Of a stretch of 15,611 nucleotides of DNA, positions 1 to 15,595 are shown one piece after another. Position 1 is the first letter of the stretch; each line of letters starts with the position of its first letter. The translations under genes were made by a program, and so were the position numbers. The notes under the pieces are model-generated. The model saw only the letters and a program-made list of their open reading frames with translations, made no database searches and was not told the origin of the DNA. Origin of the DNA: a virus (lineage: Duplodnaviria; Heunggongvirae; Uroviricota; Caudoviricetes); IMG/VR virus record IMGVR_UViG_3300029733_000039, positions 1 through 15,611 of that record; one strand, written 5' to 3'.

Positions 1-508
1 CATCCACCCCCTGCGCCCGGACTTCAGCCAGGAAAGCATCAGTGGTTGGCGTTTCAGGTATCTGTCTCCTCATCCGTTCTATTGCATGATTGAACCCGAA
101 GTCTTCCGCGAGAGATACGTCATCCATATTGTCATTGTCATCCTCAATATCCCGTGATTTTGGAATTGCAGACTTTATTCCCGCATTCTCAGCAGCCAGC
201 GCCGCGCACTTGGCCTCAAGAGCGGCAACCACTTCCTGATGGTCTTTGTACTTAACGTATGAGCCGGAGATGTCATCACCTTCGGTGTTTAGCCATGCGT
301 CATTGCAATTCACTGCGTAGGTTCTGATGCTGATGCTCTCCCGCCCCTGACAGACGCCAGGCCAGTCAATAAAGTATCCGCAATGCCTACCCTCAGACGT
401 GCGCGCAGGATAAATGCCGTTATGACCCGGCAAAATATATGCTACCCATTCATCTTGCGTTGCCTGTTCCGCCGCCTCGCGCAGTTCTTGATAGTCAATC
501 TTGCTCAC
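1..508 (-). CDS. Early-left operon protein, possibly Ead/Ea22-like; N-terminus complete, C-terminus beyond the window edge
   Basis: Minus-strand frame open from the window edge to a GTG at 508..506, preceded by AGGAGG (complement of 515..520) at 6-nt spacing. The GTG overlaps the TGA stop of the upstream gene (GTGA), indicating translational coupling. The family name is from memory of similar prophage proteins, not a search. Confidence 0.4.
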   Translation of the reverse strand, partial: MSKIDYQELREAAEQATQDEWVAYILPGHNGIYPARTSEGRHCGYFIDWPGVCQGRESISIRTYAVNCNDAWLNTEGDDISGSYVKYKDHQEVVAALEAKCAALAAENAGIKSAIPKSRDIEDDNDNMDDVSLAEDFGFNHAIERMRRQIPETPTTDAFLAEVRAQGVD

Positions 509-855
509 TGGTTGCCTCCTTTGCGAATCTGTTCCGCCCATTCTTCTAGGGATTTCTCCGCATATTCACCGGACAGGCCATCAATCGGGTGTGGTTCATT
601 AGCCAACTCTTCTTTCGCTGACAGAATCATGCGTGTAACGTCGAAAACTTCACGTAAAGACTTATTGATAAATCCGTGATTGAAAGCCGCAGCAAGACGG
701 CTTGCGGTATAGTTAATACCCTCGTTGCGAGCCTCAGCACGTACTTCATCGAATTTACGCACCAGATACTCAGCATTTGTTTCATTCACTTTCAGATCTC
801 GTGGTACACATTTCCCGCGAAGAAACCCTTCCATTTCGAAAACATTCATGCGCAT
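505..855 (-). CDS. Hypothetical phage early protein, 116 aa, in the position of YfdS
   Basis: ORF-track frame 505..855 on the minus strand. ATG at 855..853 with GGAG about 9 nt upstream. Overlaps the upstream YfdR-like gene by 10 nt and is coupled (GTGA) to the downstream gene. No recognisable motif; named by position only. Confidence 0.5.
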   Translation of the reverse strand: MRMNVFEMEGFLRGKCVPRDLKVNETNAEYLVRKFDEVRAEARNEGINYTASRLAAAFNHGFINKSLREVFDVTRMILSAKEELANEPHPIDGLSGEYAEKSLEEWAEQIRKGGNQ

Positions 856-1382
856 TTGCGTAACTCCGATAACTCGTTAAAACGTTCCATAAACATCCCG
901 TAGGCATGGCCTGGCGACAGTGGAATCACTTTGAACATCTCTGTTGCCGGGATACCTTCCAGTACAGGCCAGAAAGAGCTATCATCAAGCCCGAGATCGC
1001 GGCGTTCGGTTGCCAGCATGATGAGATCGGCATATTTCACGGGCGTGCTCATAACCGGGGGTAACCCGTATTTCTCACGGATTACGGCGTCTATTTTTTC
1101 TTCCATCCGTTTATAGTCAGGAAGAAGGCGTTTCAGTGGAGCGGGAATATCCTGGCAATACGCTTCTGTTGCATCATGCATTAACGCTTCAAAAGCAAAT
1201 TCCTGCGGCACCAGCTGGCTGCAAAGCACCGCATGTTGGGCGACACTGTAGAAGTGAGAAAGATGACCGGCAAAGCGGCAGATATTTGAAAGGGAAACCG
1301 CGATATCGTTAATCACGATGTCGTCTTTATTTATCCTGTCATAATAAAAATGCTTCCCGGAAAAAGTTTTAATAAATGACAT
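846..1382 (-). CDS. yfdR: HD-domain phosphohydrolase, YfdR-like 5'-deoxynucleotidase, about 179 aa
   Basis: The ORF track gives 846..1445; the preferred start is the internal ATG at 1382..1380 (MSFIKTF...), which has a GGAGAA RBS. The protein contains an HD-type motif (ALMHDATEAY) and histidines consistent with a metal-dependent phosphohydrolase. Size and synteny (after a YfdQ-like gene) match CPS-53 YfdR. Symbol assigned by synteny and length, not by sequence search. Confidence 0.6.
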   Translation of the reverse strand: MSFIKTFSGKHFYYDRINKDDIVINDIAVSLSNICRFAGHLSHFYSVAQHAVLCSQLVPQEFAFEALMHDATEAYCQDIPAPLKRLLPDYKRMEEKIDAVIREKYGLPPVMSTPVKYADLIMLATERRDLGLDDSSFWPVLEGIPATEMFKVIPLSPGHAYGMFMERFNELSELRKCA

Positions 1383-1510
1383 TTTGTTCTCCACTTTATA
1401 TGCGCTGCACCGCGCTGAATTTTGGTTAAAGAAAACCCTCGCCATCAGGCGATTATTGAGTCAATTATGTTTCCATAAATGCCCCCGCAGGGGCATTTGC
1501 AGTAATGAAA

Positions 1511-2335
1511 TCAGGCGGTGAAAGTACCAATAAAGGTTTCTACTTTGCTGTCTTTAAATTTCTCAACAAGCAGATCACGAAATTCGTTAGCCATTTCTTC
1601 CTGCACTGCTTCCAGCTGAATAATGCGCAGAACCAGTACAGGACGATCGCCAGTGATAATGCTGAGGCGTAATTTAAACGGACGTTCTTTCAGGCCTTCA
1701 AACGGAACGCATTTAAATTTAAATGCCACTGGCATAATATCTTTGGTCTTCGCTTCGACAGACTCCATCAGGGAGCGTTTGCCGCTGAAGTCATTATCTT
1801 CAAAATCAGCGGTCTGGTTCGCTTCAATTGTGATTTTACGGACCGCCGCAGCCGCTTTTGTTGCCTTAATAGCGTCACCATTAGCATCAAAGCCCACAAG
1901 ATAGTCGGCCCAGTCTTCAATCCATTCTGCCAGTGACTTCTGGGAGTTACGCTCGCCGTTAACAGACAACAGAGCAGAGAACGGTGCTGTCTTTTTCAGT
2001 TTGAGTGTGGCGGTGTTATCTGCGTGACCTGGTTCACCAATAGTACCCAGGTTAAGCACACTGACGGCACGCATATTATCGGCATCGATAAAGCAGCGGG
2101 TGCCTTCATCTGCAAGATCTTTAGAATAACGGGTAAAGTCATCGATGCTGGCAGTGGAAAGCGCACCACGGAAACGGAAGCGATTTAAATTAAATTTTTC
2201 CAGATCATGAATGCGGAAATTCTCAGGCAATGCCACAGCATCGGCACCAATCTTACTGATAATTTCATTAACACCCTGAGCAGAAATAAGGGCATGGATT
2301 TGATTAATTGCGGTTGCGTCTAAGTTCTGAGACAT
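1511..2335 (-). CDS. yfdQ: YfdQ-like protein (DUF2303 family), 274 aa
   Basis: Clean 274-aa minus-strand ORF with a GAGGA RBS 7 nt upstream of the ATG at 2335. Length is identical to E. coli K-12 CPS-53 YfdQ and it sits in the YfdP-YfdQ-YfdR order. Function unknown. Confidence 0.6.
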
Positions 2336-2400
2336 AATAAGTCCTCACTATATTAAGATATTCAGTGATGAGATAAATAATCAGTTAATTAAGAACGATA

Positions 2401-2763
2401 TTAATGACCTGCTGCGCGGAGTTTTCCGTCAGGTTCACCGGCAAGAGTCAGTAATTGTCCCTGGTCTTCCTGCAGAATAGTCAGGCGACCACCTCGATTG
2501 ACATACATCGGCGTTTCGGTGGTGTCTTCTTCGGAGATTTTCCCGCGGTTAGTCGGGCGAACATATGAGAGTTTGTGTTTGATTTTCACACGGTTCTCAT
2601 CAAACGGTTCGATGTCCAGATTGACCGAGACTTTACCTTTGTTTTTCGTGTTCATCACACCGGAAGCGACTTCACTGAGAACTGCGCCGAGTTTGGTTTC
2701 AAATACGCCGCCGTCCAGTTCTACGATAAATACCTGCACATCAGTACTGCGTACGCTAGCCAT
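2401..2763 (-). CDS. yfdP: YfdP-like hypothetical protein, 120 aa
   Basis: The ORF track gives 2401..2949; the preferred start is the ATG at 2763..2761 (MASVRSTDVQ...), which has a strong GAGGAG RBS. This gives 120 aa, the length of K-12 YfdP. The upstream 62-codon extension has no RBS and overlaps structured leader sequence. Confidence 0.55.
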   Translation of the reverse strand: MASVRSTDVQVFIVELDGGVFETKLGAVLSEVASGVMNTKNKGKVSVNLDIEPFDENRVKIKHKLSYVRPTNRGKISEEDTTETPMYVNRGGRLTILQEDQGQLLTLAGEPDGKLRAAGH

Positions 2764-2900
2764 TTTGCTGCTCCTCATCATACCGACCCTGCAAGGTCGG
2801 TTGGTTTCTCCACAAAACAGAGAAGAACACCTGCGGTGACAGCCGCCCGGATGGATTGGGTTATGAGCCCGTCGTCCGGTGATGCTCTTCTCTGTTTTGT

Positions 2901-2962
2901 AAAAAGAGCGGTACCAGCCGGAAGCAAGTGTACAAACTGGTACCGCCAAAGCAGTGGCTGTT
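2901..2962 (-). ncRNA. dicF: DicF-like small RNA with intrinsic terminator
   Basis: The minus-strand sequence UUUGGCGGUACCAGUUU matches the DicF core as I recall it (UUUGGCGGUAUCAGUUU) at 16 of 17 positions. It is followed by an 11-bp terminator stem (5' arm 2947..2937, 3' arm 2917..2907, including one G-U pair) with a 19-nt loop and a UCUUUUU tract (2907..2901). It lies in the early-left leader downstream of the repressor gene, as dicF does in Qin. The 5' end is not determinable from sequence. Confidence 0.5.
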
Positions 2963-3439
2963 GTGGTGCCGGTGCTGATCTCCGGCTTGCGGTTATTTCA
3001 GACTCTCACGGGCGTTTGATTGCCCCGCCGAACAGCTCTTTTCCGCAATAGCCGCAATGTCTTTCGCGCATCAGCCTGCGCATTCACCACAACGCTGAGA
3101 GCATTGCCGGTGTCCGAATCGAACGGACCTTTTCCCTGCCCAACCCTCCCATCTGAATGGGACTGTCTGGAATTGAACCAGCACTTATGCCTTGCTCGTC
3201 AATGCTCTCATCGTTGCGTCCTGGTCTCTTCCCAGGCGTCAAACCGAATCGCCACGCTGGTTAGGCGTCTTATCAGCATCATCATTGACTTGCACATTCC
3301 GGCTACCTGGTTTGTTTGCCCGAGCAAGGAGTGGATTGTCCCCTTTAACGTCCCCAGACCGCTAACGACGCATGTGCCATACGCCGTGTTACAACCAAAT
3401 TTTGTTTAATCTTGCCTGTGGCATGTTTCTTTTAGATAC

Positions 3440-3467
3440 ATTATGTATCTCAAGGGTACATTGTCAA
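3440..3467 (-). promoter_or_regulatory. Candidate PL early-left promoter with operator half-site
   Basis: On the minus strand: TTGACA (complement of 3462..3467), a 16-nt spacer, then CATAAT (complement of 3440..3445). A GGGTACA motif shared with the OR operator lies in the spacer. Inference only. Confidence 0.35.
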
Positions 3468-3470
3468 GTA

Positions 3471-3494
3471 TAAAAAAACCTGCCGAAGCAGGTT
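3471..3494 (-). terminator. Rho-independent terminator after the repressor gene
   Basis: Minus-strand hairpin AACCUGC-UUCG-GCAGGUU followed by a U7 tract, 12 nt downstream of the CI stop codon. Confidence 0.6.
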
Positions 3495-3505
3495 ATAAAT
3501 ATTGA

Positions 3506-4180
3506 TTAGGCCTTTATTTTGTATCTTCTTGGTTTTCCTGAGAAAATTACTGTACCAATTATAGAGCAATTACCGTTAATCTTAATGTAAGGCTCAGGCC
3601 AGTTTGGGTTTAATGCTTTGAGATAACGCTGTGTTCCATCTTCTATCAATCGCTTGAAGGTGGTTTCGCCTGTATCGTGCATCAATGCAATAACGTCGTC
3701 ACCGTGGCAGGCAGGGACTTCGGGATCAACAAAAATCATGTCTCCCGGGCGGTACTCATCAATCATTGAATCACCAATCACCCGCAAGATATAAGTCATT
3801 TCGCCACAGGGTACAGGGCAGGGATAAGTTTCTGCTGTGCTCAAATCAACCTCAGAATAGCCAACTTCTTTCCATGCTCCGGCCTGTACCCATGATATGA
3901 CAGGGACTAACGTTATTTGTTTGTTAGTAATTGAAACATCAGGTTTTTTTGTGATGTTTGTTGTCTGGTGTTCTTGATCAAGCCATCCGACAGGCAGGTC
4001 GAAACATTTTTCGATGTGCCGTGCCATGCTGTCACCGATATTTTTAGTAGCACCATCTCCCATAAACCTGCTGGTCTGGGTTGGCTCGCGATCAATCATG
4101 GTGGCAAAGGAAGAATTCCCGCCAACACCATCTCTCAGTTTTCTGGCGTTAGACCGCCGGATGTCATGGACTGTTTTCAT
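3506..4180 (-). CDS. CI-like phage repressor with C-terminal S24 (LexA-type) autopeptidase domain
   Basis: 224-aa ORF divergent from the cro-like gene. The C-terminal half has the S24 Ser-Lys dyad signature (VIGDSM ... TFKRL). The N-terminal part is consistent with a DNA-binding domain. A terminator follows directly. Confidence 0.85.
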   Translation of the reverse strand: MKTVHDIRRSNARKLRDGVGGNSSFATMIDREPTQTSRFMGDGATKNIGDSMARHIEKCFDLPVGWLDQEHQTTNITKKPDVSITNKQITLVPVISWVQAGAWKEVGYSEVDLSTAETYPCPVPCGEMTYILRVIGDSMIDEYRPGDMIFVDPEVPACHGDDVIALMHDTGETTFKRLIEDGTQRYLKALNPNWPEPYIKINGNCSIIGTVIFSGKPRRYKIKA

Positions 4181-4197
4181 AACGAAATTAAAACCTT

Positions 4198-4216
4198 TGT
4201 ACCGATAGGGTACAAG
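4198..4216. promoter_or_regulatory. Operator-like palindrome (OR) in the cI-cro divergent region
   Basis: Inverted repeat TTGTACC-GATAG-GGTACAA sits just upstream of the PR -35. The GGGTACA half-site recurs at the candidate PL near 3451..3460. Confidence 0.5.
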
Positions 4217-4220
4217 TATC

Positions 4221-4248
4221 TTGAAGGTTCATCTCAATCATGTAATAT
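4221..4248 (+). promoter_or_regulatory. Candidate PR promoter
   Basis: TTGAAG (4221..4226), 16-nt spacer, TAATAT (4243..4248). GGAGG RBS at 4256..4260 and cro ATG at 4271. Confidence 0.5.
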
Positions 4249-4270
4249 GTATATCGGAGGTACATATTGT

Positions 4271-4471
4271 ATGAAAGCGTATTGGGACTCTTTAACCAAA
4301 GAACAGCAGGGCGAGTTGGCCGGAAAAGTTGGCTCAACACCAGGCTACTTACGGCTGGTTTTCAATGGTTATAAAAAAGCCAGTTTTGTGCTGGCTAAAA
4401 AACTTGAGCAATGCACGTCAGGTGCAATTACGAAATCTGACTTAAGACCGGATATCTATCCGAAAGATTAA
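4271..4471 (+). CDS. Cro-like small DNA-binding protein, YdaS family, 66 aa
   Basis: ATG at 4271 preceded by GGAGG. The protein ends with a LRPDIYPKD motif reminiscent of YdaS/Cro-like proteins. The track ORF 3968..4471 is a long N-terminal extension through the repressor gene and is rejected. Confidence 0.7.
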   Translation: MKAYWDSLTKEQQGELAGKVGSTPGYLRLVFNGYKKASFVLAKKLEQCTSGAITKSDLRPDIYPKD

Positions 4472-4502
4472 CAGAACACCTTCAATTTTTAACCACAGAA
4501 CG

Positions 4503-5072
4503 ATGAGGCTAACCGTGGGTAAGCATCACTGGAAAGTAGAAAAACAGCCTGAGTGGTACGTGAAAGCTGTCAGAAAAACTATCGCGGCGTTGCCGGGGGG
4601 TTACGCTGAAGCTGCTGAGTGGCTGGATGTAACAGAGAACGCTTTATTCAACCGCCTTCGTGCAGATGGCGATCAGATTTTCCCGCTGGGATGGGCAATG
4701 ATTTTACAGCGCGCGGCTGGCACTCACTACATTGCGGATGCTGTCGCACAGTCTGCTGGTGGGGTGTTTGTATCGCTTCCTGAAATTGAGGAAGTAGAGA
4801 ATGCCGATATAAACCAGCGCCTGCTGGAAGTCATCGAACAGATCGGGAGTTACTCAAAGCAGATTCGTTCGGCAATCGAAGATGGGGTAGTGGAGCCACA
4901 CGAGCAGACAGCAATTAATGATGAGTTGTATCTGTCAATTTCGAAGCTCCAGGAGCATGCAGCACTGGTCTACAAAATCTTTTGCGCTCCAGAAAAGAGT
5001 GACGCCCGCGAGTGTGCAGCTCCGGGCGTCGTGGCGTCGATTGCTTCTGGTTGTGGAGAAACTAACGCATGA
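4503..5072 (+). CDS. YdaT-like / CII-position regulatory protein, 189 aa
   Basis: First gene downstream of cro in the PR operon. Family resemblance to YdaT (structurally CII-like) is from memory. An alternative GTG start at 4515 has a GAGG RBS. The stop overlaps the next ATG (ATGA). Confidence 0.5.
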   Translation: MRLTVGKHHWKVEKQPEWYVKAVRKTIAALPGGYAEAAEWLDVTENALFNRLRADGDQIFPLGWAMILQRAAGTHYIADAVAQSAGGVFVSLPEIEEVENADINQRLLEVIEQIGSYSKQIRSAIEDGVVEPHEQTAINDELYLSISKLQEHAALVYKIFCAPEKSDARECAAPGVVASIASGCGETNA

Positions 5073-6865
5073 ATAGTTTAACGGCAAATAACCGTTTGTC
5101 GCAACAGCTGGTGGTCAGCGTCGCTGAACACCTGTTGTTACGGCATGAATGCAGATTACCAAATCACCTGGCTGTAAGTAACCACAGAGAACTTTACCTG
5201 ACTGTGGGGGGCGAGTTGTGCAGGAACTTAACCGCTGGTTTCGTGACGGAAGAGGGCTTTATGTCCATGTTATTCGTTGGGAGCCAGAAACACAGCGCGT
5301 TATCTATCTTCGCAAAGACTACCCGCATGAGTGCTTTAGTCCTTTGTGGAAATTCAGGCGTGATTTTGTTGAGTGTGAAGGACCACCAGCATATTGATTC
5401 TGCCATTCCGGGACGTTACACTGTTCAGGCACCTTATAAAGCGGGTGCCGGGATTGGCGTCCTGAAATTGTCAACGGCGATGTATGACGCGCCAGCGTCT
5501 TTTTTATCGTCCGCATTTGCTCACATCCAGATAATGGTGGGCTGGGCGGGGGCACCGAAAGGTGCGCCGGTCTCCGTTGACGCCGGTTACGCCAACCCCG
5601 TCCAGTTCACCACCAGTGAAATTGGCGTTTCCGGTGGTGGAAGTTTTTCACTGTCAACGGAGGCTGCCATCATGGCTACGATCCCAGCCCTCACTCAACC
5701 TGAAATCACCATTGACAACGGCCAGGCCGTTACCACTTCTTTGGCTGTTGCCAACTCCTTCTCCAAGCGTCACGACGATGTGCTGAAAAAGATCCGCACT
5801 CTGGATTGTTCCCCTGAGTTTTGTGCCCGCAATTTTGCGGAGACATCGATTTCGGTAAATCAACCGAACGGTGGTACACGCAAGCTCCCTTGCTATCAAA
5901 TCACACGAGACGGTTTTGCGTTTCTTGCTATGGGTTTCACGGGTAAACGTGCTGCCCGGTTCAAAGAGGCATACATCAATGCCTTTAACCAGATGGAGAA
6001 ACGCTGCATTACGGCGTTATCCCTTTTTGACTATCTCCGCTTGTTGCGCCTTGCTGGTGTTCCGGGTTATATTTCTCGCGTTGCTGTAAATCCAGCAACC
6101 GGGTTTAGCAGCCCGGAACACATCACAGCGCACAACCGCGCCTGCGGTTTTTTTGTGTGCAATGCCCGGTCACATCTGAATTATGGTGGCCTGGGTAGGG
6201 GAGCCGAAAGGCTCGCCGGGTTCTGTGATGACCGGTCTGCTAACCCTGCTCAGGTTACCACCAGTTGTTTAGCAGCAGCTTGTGGTGATAAGTCAAAACT
6301 CATCACAGGGGCTGTCGTTATGACTACCATCCCAACCCTCGCTCAACCTGAACTTTGTGTTATTGATGGCAAAGTCGTTACTTCTTCGCTGGCTGTTGCC
6401 GATTATTTCCATAAACCCCACAAAGACGTACTGGCAAAAATTTCTCGTCTGGATTGTTCCGTCGAATTTACCGAGCGAAATTTCTCGCTCAGCAAATACA
6501 CCGATGTAACAGGGCGTAAGTTGCCGTGTTATCACATCACTAAAAATGGCTTCGCGTTCCTAGCTATGAGTTTTACAGGCAAGCGAGCGGCTCGTTTTAA
6601 AGAGGTGTACATAAACGCCTTTGACCAGATGGAAAATCAACTTTCAAATCCTTCTAGGTTGAATGACGTCGCACATAACGCCAGCGTTCTCTATTCCTAC
6701 ATTTCATCAATTCATCAGGTCTGGCTGCAGCAGCTTTATCCCATGTTGGCAAAAGCCGAATCCCCGCTGGCTGTAAGTCTGTATGACCGCATCAACGACG
6801 CGGCGCTACTGGCCAGTCTCATAAATTTGTCGCTGAATCCTTCAGAGGTAAGGGGGCGCAAATGA
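5069..6865 (+). CDS. 598-codon ORF with two tandem Rha (phage regulatory protein / antirepressor-like) domains; gene model uncertain
   Basis: Single open frame 5069..6865. Two Rha-type domains (TTSLAVA ... LPCY.ITRDGFAFLAM.FTGKRAARFKE.YINAF.QME) begin at in-frame ATGs 5672 and 6320, each with its own RBS (GGAGG at 5659..5663; AGGGG at 6306..6310). The first 200 codons have no recognisable domain. Internal nucleotide-level elements (see findings) suggest the real products may be shorter, for example 5672..6865 or 6320..6865. Confidence 0.5.
   Translation: MNSLTANNRLSQQLVVSVAEHLLLRHECRLPNHLAVSNHRELYLTVGGELCRNLTAGFVTEEGFMSMLFVGSQKHSALSIFAKTTRMSALVLCGNSGVILLSVKDHQHIDSAIPGRYTVQAPYKAGAGIGVLKLSTAMYDAPASFLSSAFAHIQIMVGWAGAPKGAPVSVDAGYANPVQFTTSEIGVSGGGSFSLSTEAAIMATIPALTQPEITIDNGQAVTTSLAVANSFSKRHDDVLKKIRTLDCSPEFCARNFAETSISVNQPNGGTRKLPCYQITRDGFAFLAMGFTGKRAARFKEAYINAFNQMEKRCITALSLFDYLRLLRLAGVPGYISRVAVNPATGFSSPEHITAHNRACGFFVCNARSHLNYGGLGRGAERLAGFCDDRSANPAQVTTSCLAAACGDKSKLITGAVVMTTIPTLAQPELCVIDGKVVTSSLAVADYFHKPHKDVLAKISRLDCSVEFTERNFSLSKYTDVTGRKLPCYHITKNGFAFLAMSFTGKRAARFKEVYINAFDQMENQLSNPSRLNDVAHNASVLYSYISSIHQVWLQQLYPMLAKAESPLAVSLYDRINDAALLASLINLSLNPSEVRGRK
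5486..5615 (+). repeat. Copy 1 of a conserved structured module (terminator-like hairpin plus multi-stem element) upstream of Rha domain 1
   Basis: Hairpin GACGC-GCCA-GCGTC plus T6 (5486..5505). Then outer stem GGTGG (5536..5540) / CCACC (5610..5614), a 10-bp stem 5542..5551 / 5596..5605, a GAAA-loop hairpin 5552..5565, and a CCGG/CCGG hairpin with 12-nt loop 5567..5586. Confidence 0.6.
6134..6263 (+). repeat. Copy 2 of the same structured module, upstream of Rha domain 2
   Basis: Hairpin AACCGC-GCCT-GCGGTT plus T-run (6134..6154). Outer stem GGTGG (6185..6189) / CCACC (6258..6262), stem 6191..6200 / 6244..6253, GAAA-loop hairpin 6201..6214, CCGG/CCGG hairpin 6216..6235. Several base pairs differ from copy 1 by compensatory changes. 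Copy 2 is 1 nt shorter, so the 5' part is read in a different frame from copy 1. Confidence 0.6.
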
Positions 6866-7086
6866 TCCGGAATATTTTCAAACGGTTTACCAATCATACT
6901 TTCCGTTGTCCTCGTCCGGGTCAGTGGTACACCACGCCTGCAGGGCATGTTCTACGTGTTAGCCTGGTTGACCGTGAATGTCAGAAGGTGGTTTGTGAAC
7001 CGCTGGGCCGTAATTACCGCGTCAGTATGCCGCTTATAGCCTTTTGCTCCGGAAAAATGTTTAAGCGTCTGGGAGGTGTGGCGTGA
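6862..7086 (+). CDS. Hypothetical small protein, 74 aa
   Basis: ATG overlaps the stop of the Rha ORF (ATGA). Cys-containing (possible small metal-binding protein); no recognisable family. Confidence 0.45.
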   Translation: MIRNIFKRFTNHTFRCPRPGQWYTTPAGHVLRVSLVDRECQKVVCEPLGRNYRVSMPLIAFCSGKMFKRLGGVA

Positions 7087-7382
7087 ACTGTTTTCAGTTT
7101 GTGTGCGGATGTGCTTTCGATAACCCGATTCAGCGCCTGATTATGTTGCGTGTTTTGATGTCGGGTTCTTCAGACGGTGAAGGCGAGAGAGTTATTGATC
7201 ATCAGGTGCTTGCTGATTTCTGCTGTTGTTCTAAGCAAGCGATATTCAGGGAAACCCTGGCACTGGAAAGAGCTGGTTATCTTCATATCCGAAAAATTGC
7301 AACGCTTACTATTGATGCAAAAGCCAGACTACAACCTGCGCGTGGCTACACAATTCTCATGCTGCGGAAGGAGGTTGTATGA
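7083..7382 (+). CDS. Hypothetical small protein, 99 aa, possible helix-turn-helix
   Basis: GTG start overlapping the upstream stop (GTGA). Its stop overlaps the O-like ATG (ATGA). Weak HTH-like segment (QAIFRETLALERAGYLHIRK). Confidence 0.45.
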   Translation: MNCFQFVCGCAFDNPIQRLIMLRVLMSGSSDGEGERVIDHQVLADFCCCSKQAIFRETLALERAGYLHIRKIATLTIDAKARLQPARGYTILMLRKEVV

Positions 7383-8386
7383 GCCGTTACGCCCCCACAC
7401 CGGAAGTTATGGCTATTGGTCAAATTAATATTTCCGGCAATGTTACACCTGCGACCTGGTGGAAATATATTCGACTACCCAGTGGGCGTCCGGATGCGAC
7501 GGCTATCGCTCTGCTTTCAGAGATCGTTTACTGGTACCGCCCGACAGAGGTCAGGGATGAGCACACCGGAGCGTTGCTGGGATATCGCAAGCGTTTTCAG
7601 GGCGACAAACTGCAAAGAAGCTACCAGGCGTTTGCTGAGCAGTTTGGTTTCGGGAAAAGGGAAACCGCAGATGCGCTGAAGCGTCTGCGCGATGCAGGGT
7701 TTATTACTCTGGATTTACGCACGGTGGAAATGCTCGATGGGGTGAAATGCAGCAATATTTTGTTTGTCGGGATCAACCCACAGGCAATTGCGGCCATCAC
7801 CACACCTTCTTCTGTTTCGCCAGAAAGTAACAGCAATAATGCAATCAGCGATACAGCTATTACGTTAAAACGGAACACCCCCCGACGTCATAACGGAACA
7901 GGGGATACGCCGAATGTTGATACAAATACAGAGATTACTACAGAGATTACTACAGAGATTACTACAGAGATTACAACGGAGACTAAAAACACTATTGGCG
8001 CATCCGCTGACGCGTCTGCACCAGCGCGTTCTGCCAGACAGGAATATTCACCGGAATTTGAACAGGCCTGGCAGGAATATCCCAAACGTGCTGGTGGTAA
8101 TTCAAAATCCGCCGCTTTTAAAGCCTGGAAAGCCCGAATCAGGGAAGGTGTGACACCCGAAACCATGCTCGACGGTGTGAAACGCTATGCCGCCTGGGTG
8201 CGTGTCTCTGGAAATACCGGTACCCAGTTCGTGAAGCAGGCGTCGACGTTCTTTGGTCCGGATCGTCATTTCGAAGAATCCTGGGAAGTTCCTGCGGTAT
8301 CTGCAGTCAGACGCGAGGACCCGTACTTCAAATCCAGTTACGACAACGTGGACTACAGCCAGATCCCGGCAGGATTCAGGGGGTGA
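7379..8386 (+). CDS. Replication initiator (lambda O-like / replisome organizer) with internal iteron-encoded TEIT repeats
   Basis: 335-aa ORF in the O position of the PR operon. The central linker TEITTEITTEITTEITTE is encoded by tandem 12-bp repeats, as with the iteron-bearing origin inside lambda O. Synteny corresponds to CPS-53 yfdO, which is a fragment in K-12. Confidence 0.7.
   Translation: MSRYAPTPEVMAIGQINISGNVTPATWWKYIRLPSGRPDATAIALLSEIVYWYRPTEVRDEHTGALLGYRKRFQGDKLQRSYQAFAEQFGFGKRETADALKRLRDAGFITLDLRTVEMLDGVKCSNILFVGINPQAIAAITTPSSVSPESNSNNAISDTAITLKRNTPRRHNGTGDTPNVDTNTEITTEITTEITTEITTETKNTIGASADASAPARSARQEYSPEFEQAWQEYPKRAGGNSKSAAFKAWKARIREGVTPETMLDGVKRYAAWVRVSGNTGTQFVKQASTFFGPDRHFEESWEVPAVSAVRREDPYFKSSYDNVDYSQIPAGFRG
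7928..7975 (+). repeat. Four tandem 12-bp direct repeats (ACAGAGATTACT), candidate origin iterons
   Basis: Perfect or near-perfect 12-bp repeats at 7928, 7940, 7952 and 7964, with a degenerate fifth. They lie inside the O-like gene. Confidence 0.6.
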
Positions 8387-8388
8387 TC

Positions 8389-8877
8389 ATGAGTCTGTTA
8401 AATGACGTTCAGAAATTCATTGAAGCCCATCCGGGGTGTACTTCCGGAGACATTGCGGATGCTTTTACAGGTTACTCACGGCAGCGCGTTCTGCAGTCAG
8501 CAAGCAAGTTACGTCAGAGTGGGCGTGTGGCTCACCGTTGTGAAGGAGATACACGCAGACATTTCCCGCGCCTGACTGAGAGAGCGCAGGAACCGGAACC
8601 ACAACCAGTTCGTGAAACCAGACCTGTGCGCAATTTCTATGTCGGCACTAACGACCCGCGGGTGATTTTGTGCCTGACCCGCCAGGCTGAAGAACTGGAG
8701 TCCAGGGGCTTATACCGTCGTGCTGCAACGGTGTGGATGGCGGCATTCCGTGAAAGCCACTCCCAGCCAGAACGAAACAATTTTCTGGCACGTCGTGAGC
8801 GGTGCTTACGGAAAAGCAGCAAGCGCGCTGCATCGGGTGAAGAGTGGTATCTGTCAGGGAATTTCGTGGGGGCTTAA
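8389..8877 (+). CDS. YfdN-like phage protein, about 162 aa
   Basis: The track ORF starts at GTG 8383; the preferred start is ATG 8389, which has an AGGGGG RBS. The start region overlaps the O-like stop. Its TAA overlaps the next ATG (TAATG). Function unknown; the C-terminal region is Arg-rich. Confidence 0.55.
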   Translation: MSLLNDVQKFIEAHPGCTSGDIADAFTGYSRQRVLQSASKLRQSGRVAHRCEGDTRRHFPRLTERAQEPEPQPVRETRPVRNFYVGTNDPRVILCLTRQAEELESRGLYRRAATVWMAAFRESHSQPERNNFLARRERCLRKSSKRAASGEEWYLSGNFVGA

Positions 8878-9530
8878 TGAGTAATAAATATTGCCAGGCG
8901 CTGGTGGAACTGCGGAACAAACCAGCCCATGAACTGAAGGAAGCGGGCGATCAGTGGCGCACGCCGGACAACATTTTCTGGGGAATTAACACTCTGTTTG
9001 GCCCGTTTGTTCTGGATCTGTTTACTGACGGTGATAACGCCAAATGTGCTGCGTATTACACGGCGGAAGACAACGCGTTGGCGCATGACTGGTCAGAACG
9101 CCTTGCGGAGCTTAAAGGTGCTGCCTTTGGTAATCCCCCATACAGCCGCGCCAGTCAGCATGAGGGGCAATACATCACCGGCATGCGTTACATCATGAAG
9201 CATGCCAGTGCCATGCGTGATAAAGGCGGGCGCTATGTTTTCCTGATCAAAGCTGCCACCAGCGAAGTGTGGTGGCCGGAAGATGCAGATCATATTGCTT
9301 TTATTCGCGGGCGTATTGGTTTTGAACTGCCTGCCTGGTTTATCCCGAAAGACGAAAAGCAGGTGCCAACAGGTGCTTTCTTCGCTGGTGCTATTGCTGT
9401 TTTCGACAAGACCTGGAAGGGAGCGGCAATCAGCTACATCGGGCGCGATGAACTTGAGGCATGTGGTGAGGCATTTCTGGCGCAGGTTCGCCAGCAGGCG
9501 GAAAAACTGGTCAGGGAGATGGCGGCATGA
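8877..9530 (+). CDS. Phage N6-adenine DNA methyltransferase (Dam-like, YfdM-type)
   Basis: Contains the catalytic motif GNPPYS (NPPY). Start ATG 8877 is coupled to the upstream stop. The track ORF 8844 is an N-terminal over-extension. Confidence 0.8.
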   Translation: MSNKYCQALVELRNKPAHELKEAGDQWRTPDNIFWGINTLFGPFVLDLFTDGDNAKCAAYYTAEDNALAHDWSERLAELKGAAFGNPPYSRASQHEGQYITGMRYIMKHASAMRDKGGRYVFLIKAATSEVWWPEDADHIAFIRGRIGFELPAWFIPKDEKQVPTGAFFAGAIAVFDKTWKGAAISYIGRDELEACGEAFLAQVRQQAEKLVREMAA

Positions 9531-9853
9531 CGACATTAACTCAATGCCAGCAGCAGGTGCTGGATATGCTGATTTCTTATCAGAAAGAACGTGGCTTCCC
9601 GCCAACCAATCAGGAGGTGGCAACCATGCTGGGATACCGTTCGGTGAATGCAGCGGTGGAGCATCTTCGCGCACTGGAGAAAAAAGGTGTCATCACGATA
9701 AAGCGTGGCGTGGCCCGGGGTATCACTCTTCATACCGCGGTGAAGGACGACGACAGCGAGGCGGTCGGGATTATCCGCGCCCTGCTTGCCGGTGAGGCAA
9801 ACGCCAGGCTGCGTGCAGCCCACTGGTTACATGAGAGGGGCCTGAAAGTATGA
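9527..9853 (+). CDS. LexA N-terminal DNA-binding-domain homolog lacking the S24 cleavage domain, 108 aa
   Basis: The N-terminal 70 aa aligns by eye with the E. coli LexA winged-HTH domain (MTTLTQCQQQVLDML...GFPPTNQEVATMLGYRSVNAAVEHLRALEKKGVI versus MKALTARQQEVFDLI...[34 protein letters not shown]). There is no Ser-Lys protease domain. ATGA overlaps on both sides. Confidence 0.7.
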   Translation: MTTLTQCQQQVLDMLISYQKERGFPPTNQEVATMLGYRSVNAAVEHLRALEKKGVITIKRGVARGITLHTAVKDDDSEAVGIIRALLAGEANARLRAAHWLHERGLKV

Positions 9854-10245
9854 AGCTAATACTGCCTTTTCCGCCCAGCGTGAACACGTACTGGCGACAC
9901 CCCAACAAAGGGGCGTTTGCTGGTAAGAGCCTGATAAGCGCGGCGGGGCGAAAATTCCAGAGCGCGGCGTGTGCAGCAATAGTTGAGCAGTTACGTCGTC
10001 TGCCGAAACCAACGTCGGCACCTGCTTCAGTGGAGATCGTGTTGTTTCCTCCGGATAACCGGATCCGCGATCTGGACAACTATAACAAGGCGCTGTTTGA
10101 CGCCCTGACCCACGCGGGTGTGTGGGAAGACGACAGCCAGGTGAAAAGAATGCTGGTGGAGTGGGGACCGGTTATCCCGGAAGGGAAGGTCGAGATCACT
10201 ATCAGTAAGTACGAAAAAGCGAGTTGCAAATTAGCAACTCGGTAA
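9850..10245 (+). CDS. rusA: RusA-family Holliday junction resolvase
   Basis: 131-aa protein with the RusA core (RIRDLDNYNKALFDALTHAGVWEDDSQV, matching the conserved acidic residues). Last gene of the coupled operon. Confidence 0.85.
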   Translation: MKLILPFPPSVNTYWRHPNKGAFAGKSLISAAGRKFQSAACAAIVEQLRRLPKPTSAPASVEIVLFPPDNRIRDLDNYNKALFDALTHAGVWEDDSQVKRMLVEWGPVIPEGKVEITISKYEKASCKLATR

Positions 10246-10290
10246 CGGAATTGAGCAACACCCTAAATTTGGGTATTACCTCGTTAAAGA

Positions 10291-10310
10291 TACTGTATTT
10301 ATGAACAGTG
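10291..10310. promoter_or_regulatory. LexA box (SOS operator) upstream of the KilA-N / DUF968 / Q gene block
   Basis: TACTGTATTTATGAACAGTG fits the consensus TACTG-(TA)5-CAGTA, with CTG and CAG at canonical spacing. It lies in the 160-bp intergenic region after rusA. A candidate promoter is TTGAGC (10252..10257), 17-nt spacer, TATTAC (10275..10280). Confidence 0.6.
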
Positions 10311-10407
10311 TATCCTTGATAACTATTAAAAATCGCAGTAAGTTCATCCTGCATCAACGAAAAGGGAGTGCAGTCCCGCTCGTGGATAAAAATTTGTGGA
10401 GAAACCA

Positions 10408-11223
10408 ATGAATCAGTTGCTTGTAATTGATGGCGTTTCTGTGCGCCAGTACTTCGAATCTAACTACTGTCTTAACGACCTTCAGAAAGCTGCTCTTCTT
10501 GCCGCTGGTGAGAATCGCTCCTCCCGTTCGCTGGAAGTTCACGAGTTTATGCGTCGTCCTGAAACGAAGGCTCTTGTGGAATTATTGGAAGAAGAAACTA
10601 CGGGAGATTCCCGTAGTATTCCTGTCATCACCATTCAGGGGCGCAATGGTGGGACGTATGTCTGTAAAGAGCTGGTCTATGCATATGCAATGTGGATCAG
10701 CCCGGCATTCAGCTTAAAAGTGATACGTACTTTTGATGCGCTTCATAATTCATCACCAGAAGAAACCACATCCGACAAAATTAAATCCGGGGTCATTCTG
10801 CTTGAATCAGCAGCAAAGACTCTAAATCTGTCAAACTCCTCGAAACTTGGTGCATACCAGAAATTATCAAAGGTAGCTGGTCTTCCTGAACTTATGCCGA
10901 TCTATGCCATTGATGCACCTGCTGATGCGCCAGATGGTTCAAGCCGCCCTACGCTGTCGCTGAGTGCACTGCTGAAGCAGTATGGTATCCGCCTGACGGC
11001 TAATCAGGCATATCACCAGATGGCGAAGCTGGGGATCGTTGAACAACGCGAACGATACAGCCGTACCGCGATTAACAACATCAAAAAATTCTGGTCGCTG
11101 ACAGCGAAAGGCTGCATGTTCGGCAAGAACATCACCAGTCCTGCAAATCCGCGCGAGACGCAGCCGCATTTCTTCGAATCCCGATTCCCTGAGCTGTTAA
11201 AGCTGCTCGATACCGTTCATTGA
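10408..11223 (+). CDS. KilA-N domain protein (antirepressor-like / DNA-binding)
   Basis: N-terminal KilA-N-like region (VCKELVYAYAMWISPAFSLKVIRTFD). Preferred start is ATG 10408, with a GGAG RBS 7 nt upstream. The track start 10396 is less likely. Confidence 0.65.
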   Translation: MNQLLVIDGVSVRQYFESNYCLNDLQKAALLAAGENRSSRSLEVHEFMRRPETKALVELLEEETTGDSRSIPVITIQGRNGGTYVCKELVYAYAMWISPAFSLKVIRTFDALHNSSPEETTSDKIKSGVILLESAAKTLNLSNSSKLGAYQKLSKVAGLPELMPIYAIDAPADAPDGSSRPTLSLSALLKQYGIRLTANQAYHQMAKLGIVEQRERYSRTAINNIKKFWSLTAKGCMFGKNITSPANPRETQPHFFESRFPELLKLLDTVH

Positions 11224-11224
11224 G

Positions 11225-12220: not shown

Positions 12221-12237
12221 TTTTGTGGAGAAAGTTG

Positions 12238-12630
12238 ATGCGTGATATTCAGATGGTTCTTGAACGCTGGGGGGCATGGGCGGCAAGTGGTAACACCGGG
12301 GTGGACTATTCTCCGATAGCTGCTGGATTTAAAGGCCTTTTACCATCCACCGCTAAACCTCGCCCGGCCTGCAGCGATGATGACGGCCTTATCATCGAAA
12401 ACTGCCTTACGCGCCTGAAGAAGAAAAAACCGGACGAGTATTCGCTGCTGGTAGCTCATTATCTGCTGCGCATATCAAAAAGGCAGATTGCCAGAACAAG
12501 AAAGAAGAGCGAAAAGGCAATACGAATTGAGATGCAGATTGCTGAAGGATTTATTGACGGATGTCTGTCGATGCTGGGTGTAAGGCTGGAGATGGACGAC
12601 TGGCTGCCCAAAAAAGTAAAAAATGATTAG
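12238..12630 (+). CDS. Late-gene antiterminator Q (phage 21/82-type, QuuD-like)
   Basis: The N-terminus MRDIQMVLERWGAWAA... matches the characteristic start of Q antiterminators of this type as recalled. ATG 12238 has a GGAG RBS. The track TTG start at 12223 is less likely. A terminator follows. Confidence 0.75.
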   Translation: MRDIQMVLERWGAWAASGNTGVDYSPIAAGFKGLLPSTAKPRPACSDDDGLIIENCLTRLKKKKPDEYSLLVAHYLLRISKRQIARTRKKSEKAIRIEMQIAEGFIDGCLSMLGVRLEMDDWLPKKVKND

Positions 12631-12690
12631 CGCGGTCCGCAAAAAGTATGTCAGTATGTTAAGAGTGGTTACTACGCCACACAACTTAAA

Positions 12691-12712
12691 CCCGCCGCCT
12701 GGCGGGTTTTTT
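12691..12712 (+). terminator. tR'-like intrinsic terminator downstream of Q
   Basis: CCCGCC-GCCT-GGCGGG followed by T6, about 60 nt after the Q stop, as expected for a late-promoter / tR' arrangement. The late promoter itself could not be pinned down. Confidence 0.7.
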
Positions 12713-13029: not shown

Positions 13030-13040
13030 AGGCTTTTTTA
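13016..13040 (+). terminator. Intrinsic terminator at the end of the small cargo ORF
   Basis: GCCTTC-CGCAGT-GAAGGC followed by TTTTTT. Confidence 0.5.
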
Positions 13041-13612: not shown

Positions 13613-15595
13613 ATGGCATTTAAACACTATGACGTGGTCAGGGCGGCGTCGCCGTCAGACCTTGCGGAGCGACTGACTCAAAAACTGAAGGAGGGGTGGC
13701 AGCCATTTGGCAGTCCGGTGGCCATCACGCCCTATACCCTGATGCAGGCCATTGCGGCGGAAGGTGATGTCACCACACCGGTGGTGGTGCAACCGTCGGG
13801 TGATGGTGGCGCTGTTATCAGCACCACCAGCGAACCGGAATATTACTTTGTCATTGCGCTGGCCGGGCAGTCCAACTCGATGTCTTTTGGCGAGGGGCTG
13901 CCGCTGCCGGATACGTATGATCGTCCTGACCCGCGTATTAAGCAACTGGCGCGTCGCAGCACGGTGACACCGGGCGGTGCGGCCTGTGCATATAACGACA
14001 TTATTCCTGCAGACCATTGTCTGCATGATGTGCAGGACGTGAGTAATCTGAATCACCCGAAAGCAGACCTCAATAAAGGGCAGTATGGCTGTGTGGGGCA
14101 TGCCCTGCATGTGGCCAAAAAACTGCTGCCGTTTATGCCTGCCCGTGCGGGGATCCTTCTTGTCCCGTGTGGACGTGGCGATTCGGGATTTACTGCGGGA
14201 GCAGAGGGCGCGTTTAATGAGGCGTCGGGTGCGACAGCGGGCTCTTCCCTGTGGGGGGGGGATAAACCGTTGTATCGTGACCTGGTCAGCAGAACGCGTG
14301 CAGCCCTGAAGAAAAATCCGAAAAACGTGCTGTTGTCGGTGATCTGGATGCAGGGGGAAAAAGATGTCAGTTCGGGGAGACATGCAGAGCACAATGCACT
14401 TTTTCTTGCCATGGTAAATAAATACCGTGCAGACCTGGCAGATATTGCAGACCAGTGTATTGGCGGGACAACGTCCGGCGTCCCGTGGATTTGCGGTGAC
14501 ACCACGTACGACTGGAAGGCGAAGTATGCAGTGCAGTATGAGGCGGTTTACGGAGGCTATAAAGGCAAGGCGGCGCAGAATATTCACTTTGTGCCGTTGA
14601 TGACGGATGAGCATGGTGCGAATGTGCCGACAAACGAGCCGTCAGAAGATCCGGACATTATCACGGCGGGATACTATGGTGCCGCGTCACGCAGTAATGG
14701 TAACTGGACGACAGCCGATCGTAAAACGCACTTCAGCTCCTGGGCGCGAAGAGGCATTGTTTCAGATCGGCTGGCAGGAGAGATACTGGTGCGAGCCGGG
14801 CGTTTGCTGCCGTTCCTGAGCGGGCAGTCTGCACCGCTGGCGACCACGCCAGCCTCCACGGGGGATGCACAGTCTGGCTCTGCGGGTCCGACGCAACAGC
14901 AGGGTGCAGGTACTTCTGCAGGCGGTCATACTGAAGCCGTAACAAGAATGGTGGCCGGATATGATGCGAACAGTGGCAGTGGTGTATGGACAGAGCAGCA
15001 GTGGAATGCGTCCGGTGGTAAAGGCACTGTGACGGATGACAGTGGCAGGAAGGCGCTGCGACTGGAAAAACAGCCGGGTAAACTGACCTCCTGGAAGATG
15101 TTCCGTACTGTTGCGGTGGAGGAGGCAAAAAATCTTCTCAGTAAGGGAGGTGAAATTGCCGTGCGGTTTAAGATCCCGGAGGGTGTCGAACTGGTTAACG
15201 GTCAGTTTGTCTTTGGTCTGTACTGGCCGGTGTCGCAGTGGGCGTCAGGCGCGACAGCAAACAGCATGCTGGCGTCCTTCTTCCTTCAGACGGATGCATC
15301 AAATCTGAATCTGATGTACCACAAGGGGGAGTCGAATGCGCAACTGGGCACATTTGGGGCATTTGACCATAACTGGCATACGGTTGTTTTCCGCTTTGCG
15401 GGAAATAACAGCGAAAAAGTGGTGCCGGTGATTGATGATGCAGAGCAGTCTGCGTTTGACCTGGTGATGTGGACAAATGATGGCTTTACAGCAGATACGC
15501 TGACGCTGACAGATATCACGGGGGCAAAAGCGACGTATCCGGTACTGCTTGATACGGTCACAGTCAAAGTTAACGAAAACCGGGAATCAGCATAA
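13613..15595 (+). CDS. nanS: Prophage sialate O-acetylesterase (NanS-p-like: DUF1737 N-terminal domain plus SASA/SGNH esterase domain)
   Basis: 660-aa ORF with a GGAGG RBS. The N-terminus MAFKHYDVV... and the GQSN active-site motif (ALAGQSNSM) are typical of the nanS-p genes found downstream of stx / Q in lambdoid prophages. The C-terminal roughly 200 aa is Gly/Thr/Ser-rich and looks like a carbohydrate-binding region. Confidence 0.75.
   Translation: MAFKHYDVVRAASPSDLAERLTQKLKEGWQPFGSPVAITPYTLMQAIAAEGDVTTPVVVQPSGDGGAVISTTSEPEYYFVIALAGQSNSMSFGEGLPLPDTYDRPDPRIKQLARRSTVTPGGAACAYNDIIPADHCLHDVQDVSNLNHPKADLNKGQYGCVGHALHVAKKLLPFMPARAGILLVPCGRGDSGFTAGAEGAFNEASGATAGSSLWGGDKPLYRDLVSRTRAALKKNPKNVLLSVIWMQGEKDVSSGRHAEHNALFLAMVNKYRADLADIADQCIGGTTSGVPWICGDTTYDWKAKYAVQYEAVYGGYKGKAAQNIHFVPLMTDEHGANVPTNEPSEDPDIITAGYYGAASRSNGNWTTADRKTHFSSWARRGIVSDRLAGEILVRAGRLLPFLSGQSAPLATTPASTGDAQSGSAGPTQQQGAGTSAGGHTEAVTRMVAGYDANSGSGVWTEQQWNASGGKGTVTDDSGRKALRLEKQPGKLTSWKMFRTVAVEEAKNLLSKGGEIAVRFKIPEGVELVNGQFVFGLYWPVSQWASGATANSMLASFFLQTDASNLNLMYHKGESNAQLGTFGAFDHNWHTVVFRFAGNNSEKVVPVIDDAEQSAFDLVMWTNDGFTADTLTLTDITGAKATYPVLLDTVTVKVNENRESA

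Follow-up and report, generated by a model that had tools for sequence, protein, structure and literature searches.

Two probable antisense-RNA immunity cassettes in tandem on one stop-free reading frame of a lambdoid prophage

Introduction

The closest described relatives of the locus analyzed here are the eta-kil region of satellite P4, the immI (c4) region of phages P1 and P7, and the isrK-orf45-anrP region of prophage Gifsy-1. The locus is found in a 15,611-nt stretch of DNA from a Caudoviricetes virus (IMG/VR record IMGVR_UViG_3300029733_000039, positions 1 to 15,611; referred to as the window), where, in the rightward early operon of a lambdoid prophage, it separates a CII-like ymfL gene from the replication genes. 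It consists of a plus-strand open reading frame (ORF) of 598 codons without a stop (5069..6865), containing two Rha domains, which an original prediction had attributed to a recent in-frame duplication or recombination. Our analysis revealed that this "two-Rha-domain gene" is two tandem phage immunity cassettes on one stop-free frame. It is probably a doubled RNA-immunity/antirepressor locus of the P4 eta-kil, P1 immI (c4) or Gifsy-1 IsrK type, operating by the mechanism proposed below.

The components of this locus (C4, c4-a1b1/IsrK, Rha and the eta/kil logic) are already known. As summarized in PMC10111431 from Forti et al. (1999), transcription from a constitutive promoter within P4 eta soon terminates, and CI RNA is processed from the resulting transcript; read-through allows translation of Kil. 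Transcripts from the upstream promoter read through because termination is prevented when eta is translated. Homologs of CI and seqA are also located inside Bro-network genes of phage-inducible chromosomal islands (PICIs) (PMC10111431). The immI operon of P1 and P7 (c4 antisense RNA, icd, ant) goes back to Citron & Schuster (1990), cited here through the supplement of PMC2864571 and PMC12197685. In the annotated P1 locus the order is promoter, a1, b1, c4, a2, b2 and start codon, with b2 placed over the Shine–Dalgarno sequence (SD), and a'/b' set the specificity (P1 vs P7 heteroimmunity). In Gifsy-1, the isrK promoter (PisrK) and a leaky terminator were shown by experiment (Hershko-Shalev et al. 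2016, PMC4825925); orf45, translated within the C4-like STnc1160 region, is coupled to the antirepressor AnrP and conserved at the nucleotide but not the amino-acid level, and the short IsrK activates in trans, with prophage induction (PMC4825925). IsrK and STnc1160 are transcribed constitutively in lysogens (PMC7067206), and termination is repressed by translation close to the terminator (PMC4824070).

Results

Genetic organization of the two cassettes

Each cassette is predicted to comprise a promoter, a decoy RNA with a terminator, a C4 antisense RNA and a Rha antirepressor gene. The identified elements, all on the plus strand, are as follows.

5069..6865 (+): long "conduit" ORF (eta-like); its ATG (5069) overlaps the stop of the ymfL/CII-like gene (ATGA, 5069-5072)
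5218..5397 (+): nested DUF4222 gene, in a frame other than that of the long ORF (Pfam PF13973, E 9e-14)
5394..5422 (+): predicted cassette 1 promoter, TTGATT-17 nt-TACACT, sigma-70-like, found by conservation and P1 spacing
5429..5505 (+): IsrK/c4-a1b1-like decoy RNA 1, two hairpins (Rfam isrK, 62.2 bits)
5454-5460 (+): a1 of decoy RNA 1 (complementarity)
5470-5477 (+): b1 of decoy RNA 1 (complementarity)
5486-5499, then T6 (+): intrinsic terminator of decoy RNA 1 (terminator scan)
5530..5617 (+): C4 antisense RNA 1, C4-1 (Rfam C4, 80.7 bits; fold)
5572-5581 (+): b' of C4-1, in a 12-nt loop
5589-5595 (+): a' of C4-1, in the linker
5622..5671 (+): targets of C4-1, a2 (5622-5628) and b2 (5653-5662), the latter covering the Rha1 SD GGAG
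5672..6004 (+): Rha1, a complete Phage_pRha N-domain, 100% identical to amino acids 1-110 of the Rha protein of a relative (L005)
6000..6043 (+): junction segment, conserved (RCITALSLFDYLRLL); it contains a hairpin at 6000-6018 and then a run rich in T
6044..6073 (+): promoter predicted for cassette 2, TTGCGC-18 nt-TATATT, sigma-70-like, found by conservation and P1 spacing, identical in L003, L089, L091 and L092
6067..6154 (+): IsrK/c4-a1b1-like decoy RNA 2 (Rfam isrK 6080-6154, 70.8 bits; c4-a1b1 6067-6119, 53.2 bits)
6105-6111 (+): a1 of decoy RNA 2 (complementarity)
6121-6128 (+): b1 of decoy RNA 2 (complementarity)
6134-6149, then T7 (+): intrinsic terminator of decoy RNA 2 (terminator scan)
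6179..6265 (+): C4 antisense RNA 2, C4-2 (Rfam C4, 83.3 bits), with b' at 6223-6231 and a' at 6237-6243
6269..6319 (+): targets of C4-2, a2 (6269-6275) and b2 (6300-6308), the latter abutting the Rha2 SD GGGG
6320..6865 (+): Rha2, full-length Rha-family protein of 181 aa with the N-domain and the conserved C-terminal domain (Pfam, alignment)

The Phage_pRha domain (PF09669) is complete in both halves of the ORF, searched separately (profile 1-91 of 91; E 4e-28 and 6e-28), each scoring about 98 bits against a cut-off of 29.9, and a match to TIGR02681 reaches 176.8 bits. Two diverged Rha domains in one frame, 216 codons apart, had been reported before, each with its own ribosome-binding site (RBS) and ATG, and both observations hold: the Rha ATGs (5672 and 6320) are in frame with the long ORF and 648 nt apart, and are preceded by SDs at 5659-5662 (GGAG) and 6309-6312 (GGGG). 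Direct repeats with the same 648-nt spacing reach upstream of both ATGs, and the two cassette copies share only about 75-80% DNA identity.

The two C4 RNAs match the Rfam model over its full length (positions 1-87 of 87). RNAalifold predicted for C4 the same fold as Rfam (a long closing stem, a tetraloop hairpin and a hairpin with a 12-nt loop), with compensatory changes in 11 of 27 pairs. The gathering scores are 50 for isrK (RF01394) and 45 for C4 (RF01695); the c4-a1b1 family (RF03163) is matched by copy 2 only. Each predicted promoter would place the transcription start site (TSS) at the 5' end of its IsrK-like RNA (~5429 in cassette 1). The -10 element of cassette 1 is separated from a1 by 32 nt, as is that of P1c4, a promoter annotated in P1.

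The stretch of 201 codons ahead of ATG 5672 had been described as of unusual composition and devoid of any recognizable domain. The former is weakly supported (GC content 0.56 in the RNA module vs 0.505 in the whole window). The latter is true of that frame save for PF10554, but it does not hold for the DNA, which carries the DUF4222 gene, a predicted promoter, the IsrK-like RNA and the C4 RNA. The DUF4222 domain (5218..5394) scores 51.1 bits against a cut-off of 27; its gene is overlapped by the first 110 codons of the long ORF, and its TGA stop sits within the -35 element of the cassette 1 promoter.

The ATG at 5069 is preceded by an SD (GGAG, 5056-5059), and the stop of the long ORF overlaps the ATG of the next one (6862). 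Six ORFs in a row on the plus strand are joined by 4-nt start/stop overlaps (4503..5072, 5069..6865, 6862..7086, 7083..7382, 7379..8386 and 8383..8877); this arrangement suggests an unbroken translational chain (4503-8877) leading from the CII-like gene into the replication genes.

Comparison with P4, P1 and Gifsy-1

In the P4 genome, Rfam matches to isrK (8615-8692) and C4 (8420-8507) (60.8 and 74.9 bits, respectively) lie in a 199-codon ORF that begins at ATG 8767 and overlaps the stop of ORF88. An in-frame ATG (8365) has the context "EAAIMAT", the motif found at the start of Rha1; Rha2 has the related "GAVVMTTIP". The 199-codon ORF and the ORF from ATG 8365 are the eta and kil genes. The window thus resembles eta/kil in having a long ORF that runs from the stop of the upstream gene across an internal constitutive promoter (predicted in the window), an isrK/seqA element and the C4/CI RNA, with a shorter in-frame ORF at a C4-controlled SD/ATG and an antirepressor function downstream (both putative in the window). 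Translation of the long ORF, which in P4 gives read-through according to the summary cited above, may by analogy do the same here. In contrast to P4, the nested ORF encodes a Rha-domain protein rather than Kil, a separate epsilon gene does not follow, and the unit is doubled, fused in one frame and endowed with different specificities. Moreover, the window locus belongs to a lambdoid pR-type operon, whereas eta/kil is part of the left operon of a satellite, and P4 CI acts mainly by transcription termination.

The likeness to immI comprises the element order and spacing, the position of b2 over the SD, the a'/b' specificity and the full-length C4 match. However, P1 has one cassette, its cargo is icd-ant, and no ORF passes through c4, the frame being closed 11 codons upstream, whereas the two cassettes of the window have a Rha cargo, an intrinsic terminator after a1/b1 and are embedded in a stop-free ORF.

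As in Gifsy-1, an IsrK-like RNA with its own (predicted) promoter and intrinsic terminator, leaky in Gifsy-1, is followed by a C4-like RNA, processed in Gifsy-1 (STnc1160), and by a (putative) antirepressor gene, and the short RNA would act as an activator/decoy, as IsrK does. A translation start is placed about 106-107 nt from the TSS, inside STnc1160; its counterpart, the orf45-like start of the window, is the in-frame ATG 5534 inside C4-1. Unlike orf45, which ends with AUGA on the anrP start, the frame from ATG 5534 runs into Rha1 without a stop, and ATG 6183 of cassette 2 is out of frame and opens a 29-codon ORF. Gifsy-1 also has one cassette only, at another genomic position (downstream of antQ).

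Cognate pairing and specificity

In cassette 1, a1 and a2 are both TTGGCGT (5454, 5622) and b1/b2 are GTCAACGG(AG) (5470, 5653); in cassette 2 the corresponding sequences are TTAGCAG (6105, 6269) and (T)CATCACAG (6121, 6300). The a' and b' of each C4 are exactly complementary (7-10 nt) to the a1/b1 and a2/b2 sites of their own cassette, and no cross-cassette complementarity of at least 7 nt was found at the a/b sites. Since a'/b' differ between the two cassettes, each C4 is expected to control only its own Rha, and the cassettes are thus predicted to be orthogonal in the sense of P1 vs P7 heteroimmunity.

The specificity survey covered 53 unique modules from 96 cassettes (80 IMG/VR, two E. coli/phage and one Citrobacter loci, plus the window). 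Seven b' and six a' variants occur in 11 (b', a') combinations, each of which has a cognate-only b2 of 8-10 nt located 9-11 nt before the ATG, and the a/b sites co-vary across these 11 types. Three further b' types were identified in Salmonella and E. coli A34, and the relatives contain at least 10 b' loop variants. RNAduplex energies for cognate vs non-cognate pairs were -44 vs -18, -28 vs -23, -33 vs -25 and -39 vs -28 kcal/mol; these values are inflated by stem sequences, and exact complementarity was therefore used as the basis instead.

Rha1, Rha2 and the conserved junction

The usual architecture of this Rha subgroup is an N-domain, a C-terminal domain of about 72 aa and a stop of its own. 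Rha2, which aligns to positions 144-324 of 324 of phrog_821, fits this pattern. Rha1 does not: it has neither the conserved C-terminal domain nor a stop, and beyond a breakpoint at about nt 6002 its frame continues into cassette 2.

The junction ("...NQMEK|RCITALSLFDYLRLLRLAGV...") was found in one IMG/VR contig and was not found in 5,426 complete E. coli genomes. A search of a large protein database identified the same fusion (P0001, 598 aa, 99%) as well as two-domain ORFs of 592/593 aa from Salmonella (75-78% identity, 100% coverage, dozens of contigs); Salmonella fusion ORFs of 496 aa (hundreds of contigs) and 821 aa also occur. These matches overturned the idea that the double fusion is unique to the window. 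Each of these fusion loci contains two isrK + C4 pairs in the gene context known from the window, and across loci with different first cassettes and Rha1 the junction does not differ by a single nucleotide over at least 75 nt. In E. coli A34 (L003, NZ_CP028741.1) a 24-codon Rha stump is fused to the same cassette 2 segment. A junction conserved across genera, together with only about 75-80% identity between the copies, indicates that the arrangement is old and widespread rather than a recent duplication. Recombination between Rha cassettes was rightly proposed in the original prediction, but the event was not recent; the different C4 specificities point the same way.

Most E. coli/phage relatives (SfV, mEp460, cdtI, ST64B and some Stx phages) have a single cassette; the "Rha family" protein of 382/386 aa annotated there begins where ATGA overlaps the end of ymfL. 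They share with the window the order repressor (S24, 3506..4180 in the window), cro, ymfL, long ORF, 74-aa ORF, replication genes. Within the ORF, the shared portions are its N-terminal part, cassette 1 and the Rha domain at the C-terminal end. They contain one module and one complete Rha, whereas the window has an extra unit of 648 nt, a Rha N-domain fused to a second module of other specificity. Tandem arrays occur frequently: two complete cassettes are present in L025-27, L035, L038, L042 and L062, and three in L052, L059 and L072. A scan of genome contigs with Rha2 as the query yielded one locus only, from Citrobacter.

Short divergent Rha-like cargo genes (~100-120 aa), without the C-terminal domain, were noted in L072 (892-3064), L051 (1356-2204) and L003 (3302-3661); their Phage_pRha scores (26-29 bits) are just under the gathering score of 29.9. 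If these are true Rha domains, the N-domain alone can be a natural product. The L003 region 1742-3664, in which the NCBI annotation pipeline (PGAP) calls an "ash family protein" pseudogene and a "frameshifted" hypothetical gene, is in fact one intact frame of 640 codons comprising DUF4222, two minus-strand genes, two isrK + C4 modules, the 24-codon Rha stump and a Rha-like gene.

The truncated Rha1 raises the alternative that cassette 1 is a decayed remnant. Rha1 would then be a pseudogene fragment left by a deletion, only the trans-acting C4-1/IsrK-1 and cassette 2 would be functional, and the frame would be open only because a stop would be polar. The C-terminal domain missing from Rha1 is kept by all single-cassette relatives, the stump of L003 is shorter still, and the hairpin and T-rich run at 6000-6018 could end cassette 1 transcripts that lack a stop codon. 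On the other hand, nothing is missing from the N-domain of Rha1, which matches that of an intact relative with 100% identity, and genera whose Rha1 N-domains differ but are intact share the conserved junction. Moreover, the short Rha-like proteins of L072, L051 and L003 (albeit just below threshold) appear behind modules as natural products, and covariation with C4-1 is retained by the b2 site and SD of cassette 1. We consider such decay unlikely.

PF10554 and the coding character of the module

Besides Rha, the only Pfam match in the long frame is PF10554 ("Phage_ASH"), which spans exactly the isrK + C4 stretch. In P4 the same family corresponds to an obsolete conceptual "cI" CDS (coding sequence; L093 8168-8584, minus strand) lying exactly over the C4 match, whereas P4 epsilon (L093 7888-8175, minus strand) belongs to PF25738. 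PF10554, and with it the PGAP label "ash family protein", is therefore a conceptual translation of the C4/CI locus. Ash has been equated with epsilon in the P4 literature, and PF10554 was used as an epsilon marker in a survey of P4-like satellites (PMC8628076), which, for this reason, probably detects the RNA immunity locus rather than epsilon. The "Ash" domains of Stx-phage Rha proteins have been described as being without known function (PMC8951638).

Variable columns at codon positions 1/2/3 number 37/33/40 in the module, 56/49/77 in the Rha N-domain and 12/7/33 in the DUF4222 frame. The PF10554 region thus shows no sign of protein-level purifying selection, and in the stretch 5218-5392 a codon-position bias is seen in the DUF4222 frame only.

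These data bear on the possibility that the ORF encodes one ordinary multi-domain protein (a novel N-region, Ash, Rha, a second Ash and a second Rha) translated only from 5069, with incidental RNA features. The ORF is intact, PGAP and Pfam treat such ORFs as proteins, and the same two-domain ORF with the same junction is found in Salmonella, a finding that the original prediction had taken in advance as a sign of an ordinary multi-domain protein. The conclusion of an ordinary protein does not follow, because the conserved non-Rha parts evolve as RNA/DNA signals: there is no third-position bias in the "Ash"/linker, the N-terminal part is constrained in the DUF4222 frame, the linker amino-acid differences cluster at the a/b sites, and PF10554 sits on P4 CI RNA. 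Such a reading would likewise have to accommodate four Rfam matches that greatly exceed the threshold and are backed by covariation, both structural and intermolecular, the presence within the ORF of two SD + ATG starts and two intrinsic terminators, and two copies whose reading frames differ in the interval bounded by compensating indels of 2 nt and 1 nt. A single protein of this kind is thus very improbable.

Selection on the open frame

In the doubled RNA-immunity locus proposed here, it is the open frame itself that is maintained. From the -35 anchor to the Rha ATG, the Rha frame is stop-free in 44 of 45 unique modules, whereas the other two frames contain 24 and 17 distinct stop columns. 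Module lengths (276, 279, 282 and 294 nt) are all multiples of 3, and the indels are either of 3 nt or paired (1 nt + 2 nt) such that the frame is regained; along part of the RNA, the two copies in the window thus differ in the frame in which they are read. The one exception is the third of the three cassettes of L059 (~3974-4208), where a 1-nt deletion relative to L052 closes the frame; this could be a sequencing error or real decay. The homologous modules of P1 and of the nin region of Stx2-1717 served as a control; there, the frame is closed 10-11 codons upstream, with more stops inside c4, and openness is therefore no by-product of the RNA sequence.

The ORFs of every array are linked in series by 4-nt overlaps. 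Where unrelated DNA separates the preceding plus-strand gene from the module, the stop of that gene is still the point at which the frame begins, and these bridge segments, including those with minus-strand HigA/Gp49-type genes, are open for 221-451 codons, with no stops vs 6-30 in the other frames. The frame in Salmonella L092 has 846 stop-free codons vs 43 and 46 stops in the other two. Inserted minus-strand morons (a HigA-like/Gp49-like toxin-antitoxin pair, DUF6516 and others) were seen in L078 (1081-2185), L092 (2349-2976) and L003 (1966-2608). The codon-aligned minus-strand genes under the bridge (L078, L003, L046, L064 and L015) lack TTA, CTA and TCA codons, whereas eight control minus-strand genes contain 2-7 of them each (2.3% per codon). 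Shuffling of synonymous codons preserves the codon set of codon-aligned antisense genes and was uninformative (P = 1.0), and the control frequency of these codons was used instead.

An open frame that is kept while variation remains even over the codon positions indicates selection on translatability, not on the peptide. That the frame is merely a chance by-product of strong RNA/DNA conservation and shared ancestry is scarcely credible: although module conservation is high, many of the loci are closely related and codon-aligned antisense frames are often long, homologous modules elsewhere have stops in that frame, all indel classes keep it, 1-nt + 2-nt pairs included, it stays open over unrelated inserted DNA in at least six architectures from the stop of the preceding gene, and the control minus-strand genes always contain TTA/CTA/TCA.

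The K-12 "cell division inhibitor YmfM" (b1148, 112 aa; e14, L086 4323-4661) occupies the conduit frame (window 5069-5397), where the two sequences share only 33% identity in the same frame and position. YmfM overlaps a reading frame whose counterpart in the window is the DUF4222 gene 5218..5397, and by eye the differences between the window and K-12 in 5255-5330 fall mostly at third positions of the DUF4222 frame. The published filamentation phenotype came from cloning the annotated ORF (bioRxiv 10.1101/2020.11.19.390815); such a clone would also carry the nested reading frame.

Discussion

Proposed mechanism

For the doubled RNA-immunity/antirepressor locus we propose the following course of events. 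In the lysogen only the two module promoters would fire, both constitutively. Most module transcripts would end at the intrinsic terminator, producing the short IsrK-like RNA with a1 and b1, and those that read through would give C4, whose a' and b' would pair with a2 and b2 over the Rha RBS, so that the Rha antirepressor stays off. The short RNA would titrate C4 through a1/b1, and a rise of the decoy relative to C4 would turn Rha on. When the early promoter is derepressed, ribosomes coupled from ymfL would translate the conduit frame through both modules; this would suppress the embedded terminators and Rho and allow expression of the replication genes further along, a role demonstrated for eta in P4. 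Within that frame the Rha ORFs would have nested starts of their own, comparable to kil of P4. The sequence comparisons establish the RNA elements with their cognate complementarity and covariation, selection on the open frame, and the lack of protein-level constraint outside the Rha parts; that the promoters are active, that C4 is processed, that Rha acts as an antirepressor and that read-through depends on translation are the steps that we infer. Such a locus could yield several nested products, as had been suggested and as we find plausible, and the earlier view of its relevance to lysogeny control is upheld.

Several observations weigh against this interpretation. The role of the Rha family as antirepressors comes from annotation only. 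Both promoters are predicted from sequence; each has 8 of 12 consensus matches and was missed by a generic promoter scan. Ribosomes starting at 5069 would yield Rha-containing fusion proteins, and since Rha1 lacks the C-domain and a stop, cassette 1 may make no working protein. The out-of-frame position of ATG 6183 means that a Gifsy-type coupling cannot be identical in both cassettes. One cassette of L059 is frameshifted, and the bridge ORF of L064 starts within a minus-strand gene. Finally, no N-type antiterminator was recognized in the window, from which its absence cannot be concluded.

Implications

In the searchable literature we found no description of tandem orthogonal cassettes fused in one frame in a lambdoid early operon, of combinatorial a'/b' specificity diversity in these prophages, or of a stop-free frame extending over antisense morons. 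It is possible, and we suggest it tentatively, that in SfV/e14/ST64B-like lambdoid prophages of Escherichia and Salmonella the whole rightward early operon is selected for uninterrupted translation, with a conduit frame crossing promoters, terminators, antisense-RNA genes and minus-strand toxin-antitoxin morons purged of TTA/CTA/TCA. If so, constitutive terminator-bearing cassettes could be stacked in arrays of up to three and their a'/b' specificities shuffled combinatorially. Such arrays would act as a multi-key lock on the prophage's own antirepressors that leaves lytic transcription unblocked, and may silence those of co-resident phages.

The locus would be a natural example of selection, across hundreds of codons, for translating as such and not for the peptide made. 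N-less phages may in this way generally be able to accommodate terminators and antisense morons within essential operons, and the idea of translation as antitermination becomes testable in lambdoid phages. The locus also offers a ready set of orthogonal RNA-target pairs. With respect to annotation, thousands of Escherichia/Salmonella prophage ORFs, labeled "Rha family regulator", "Rha family protein", "ash family protein", "peptidase" or "hypothetical protein", are largely conceptual translations of the RNA immunity module, PF10554 itself included.

Lysogeny control in lambdoid prophages, including Stx phages, appears to have a widespread and modular layer of antisense-RNA immunity of the P4/P1 type with many specificities; antirepressor control there affects induction and toxin release. 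An unannotated isrK + C4 module was observed in Stx2 phage 1717 (L087 1801-1998), within the nin region, where ninE and a P22-type ant gene flank it. Since many Stx2a phages carry such an unannotated nin-region module, the antirepressors of Stx phages may be under c4-type RNA control.

Other features of the window

A full-length Rfam match to the small RNA STnc100 is present at 13184-13389 (plus strand; 143 bits vs a gathering score of 47). It lies 3' of a Q-like antiterminator gene (12223..12630) and 5' of a 660-aa ORF (13613..15595), which is where Stx-type phages typically have their late-promoter leader.

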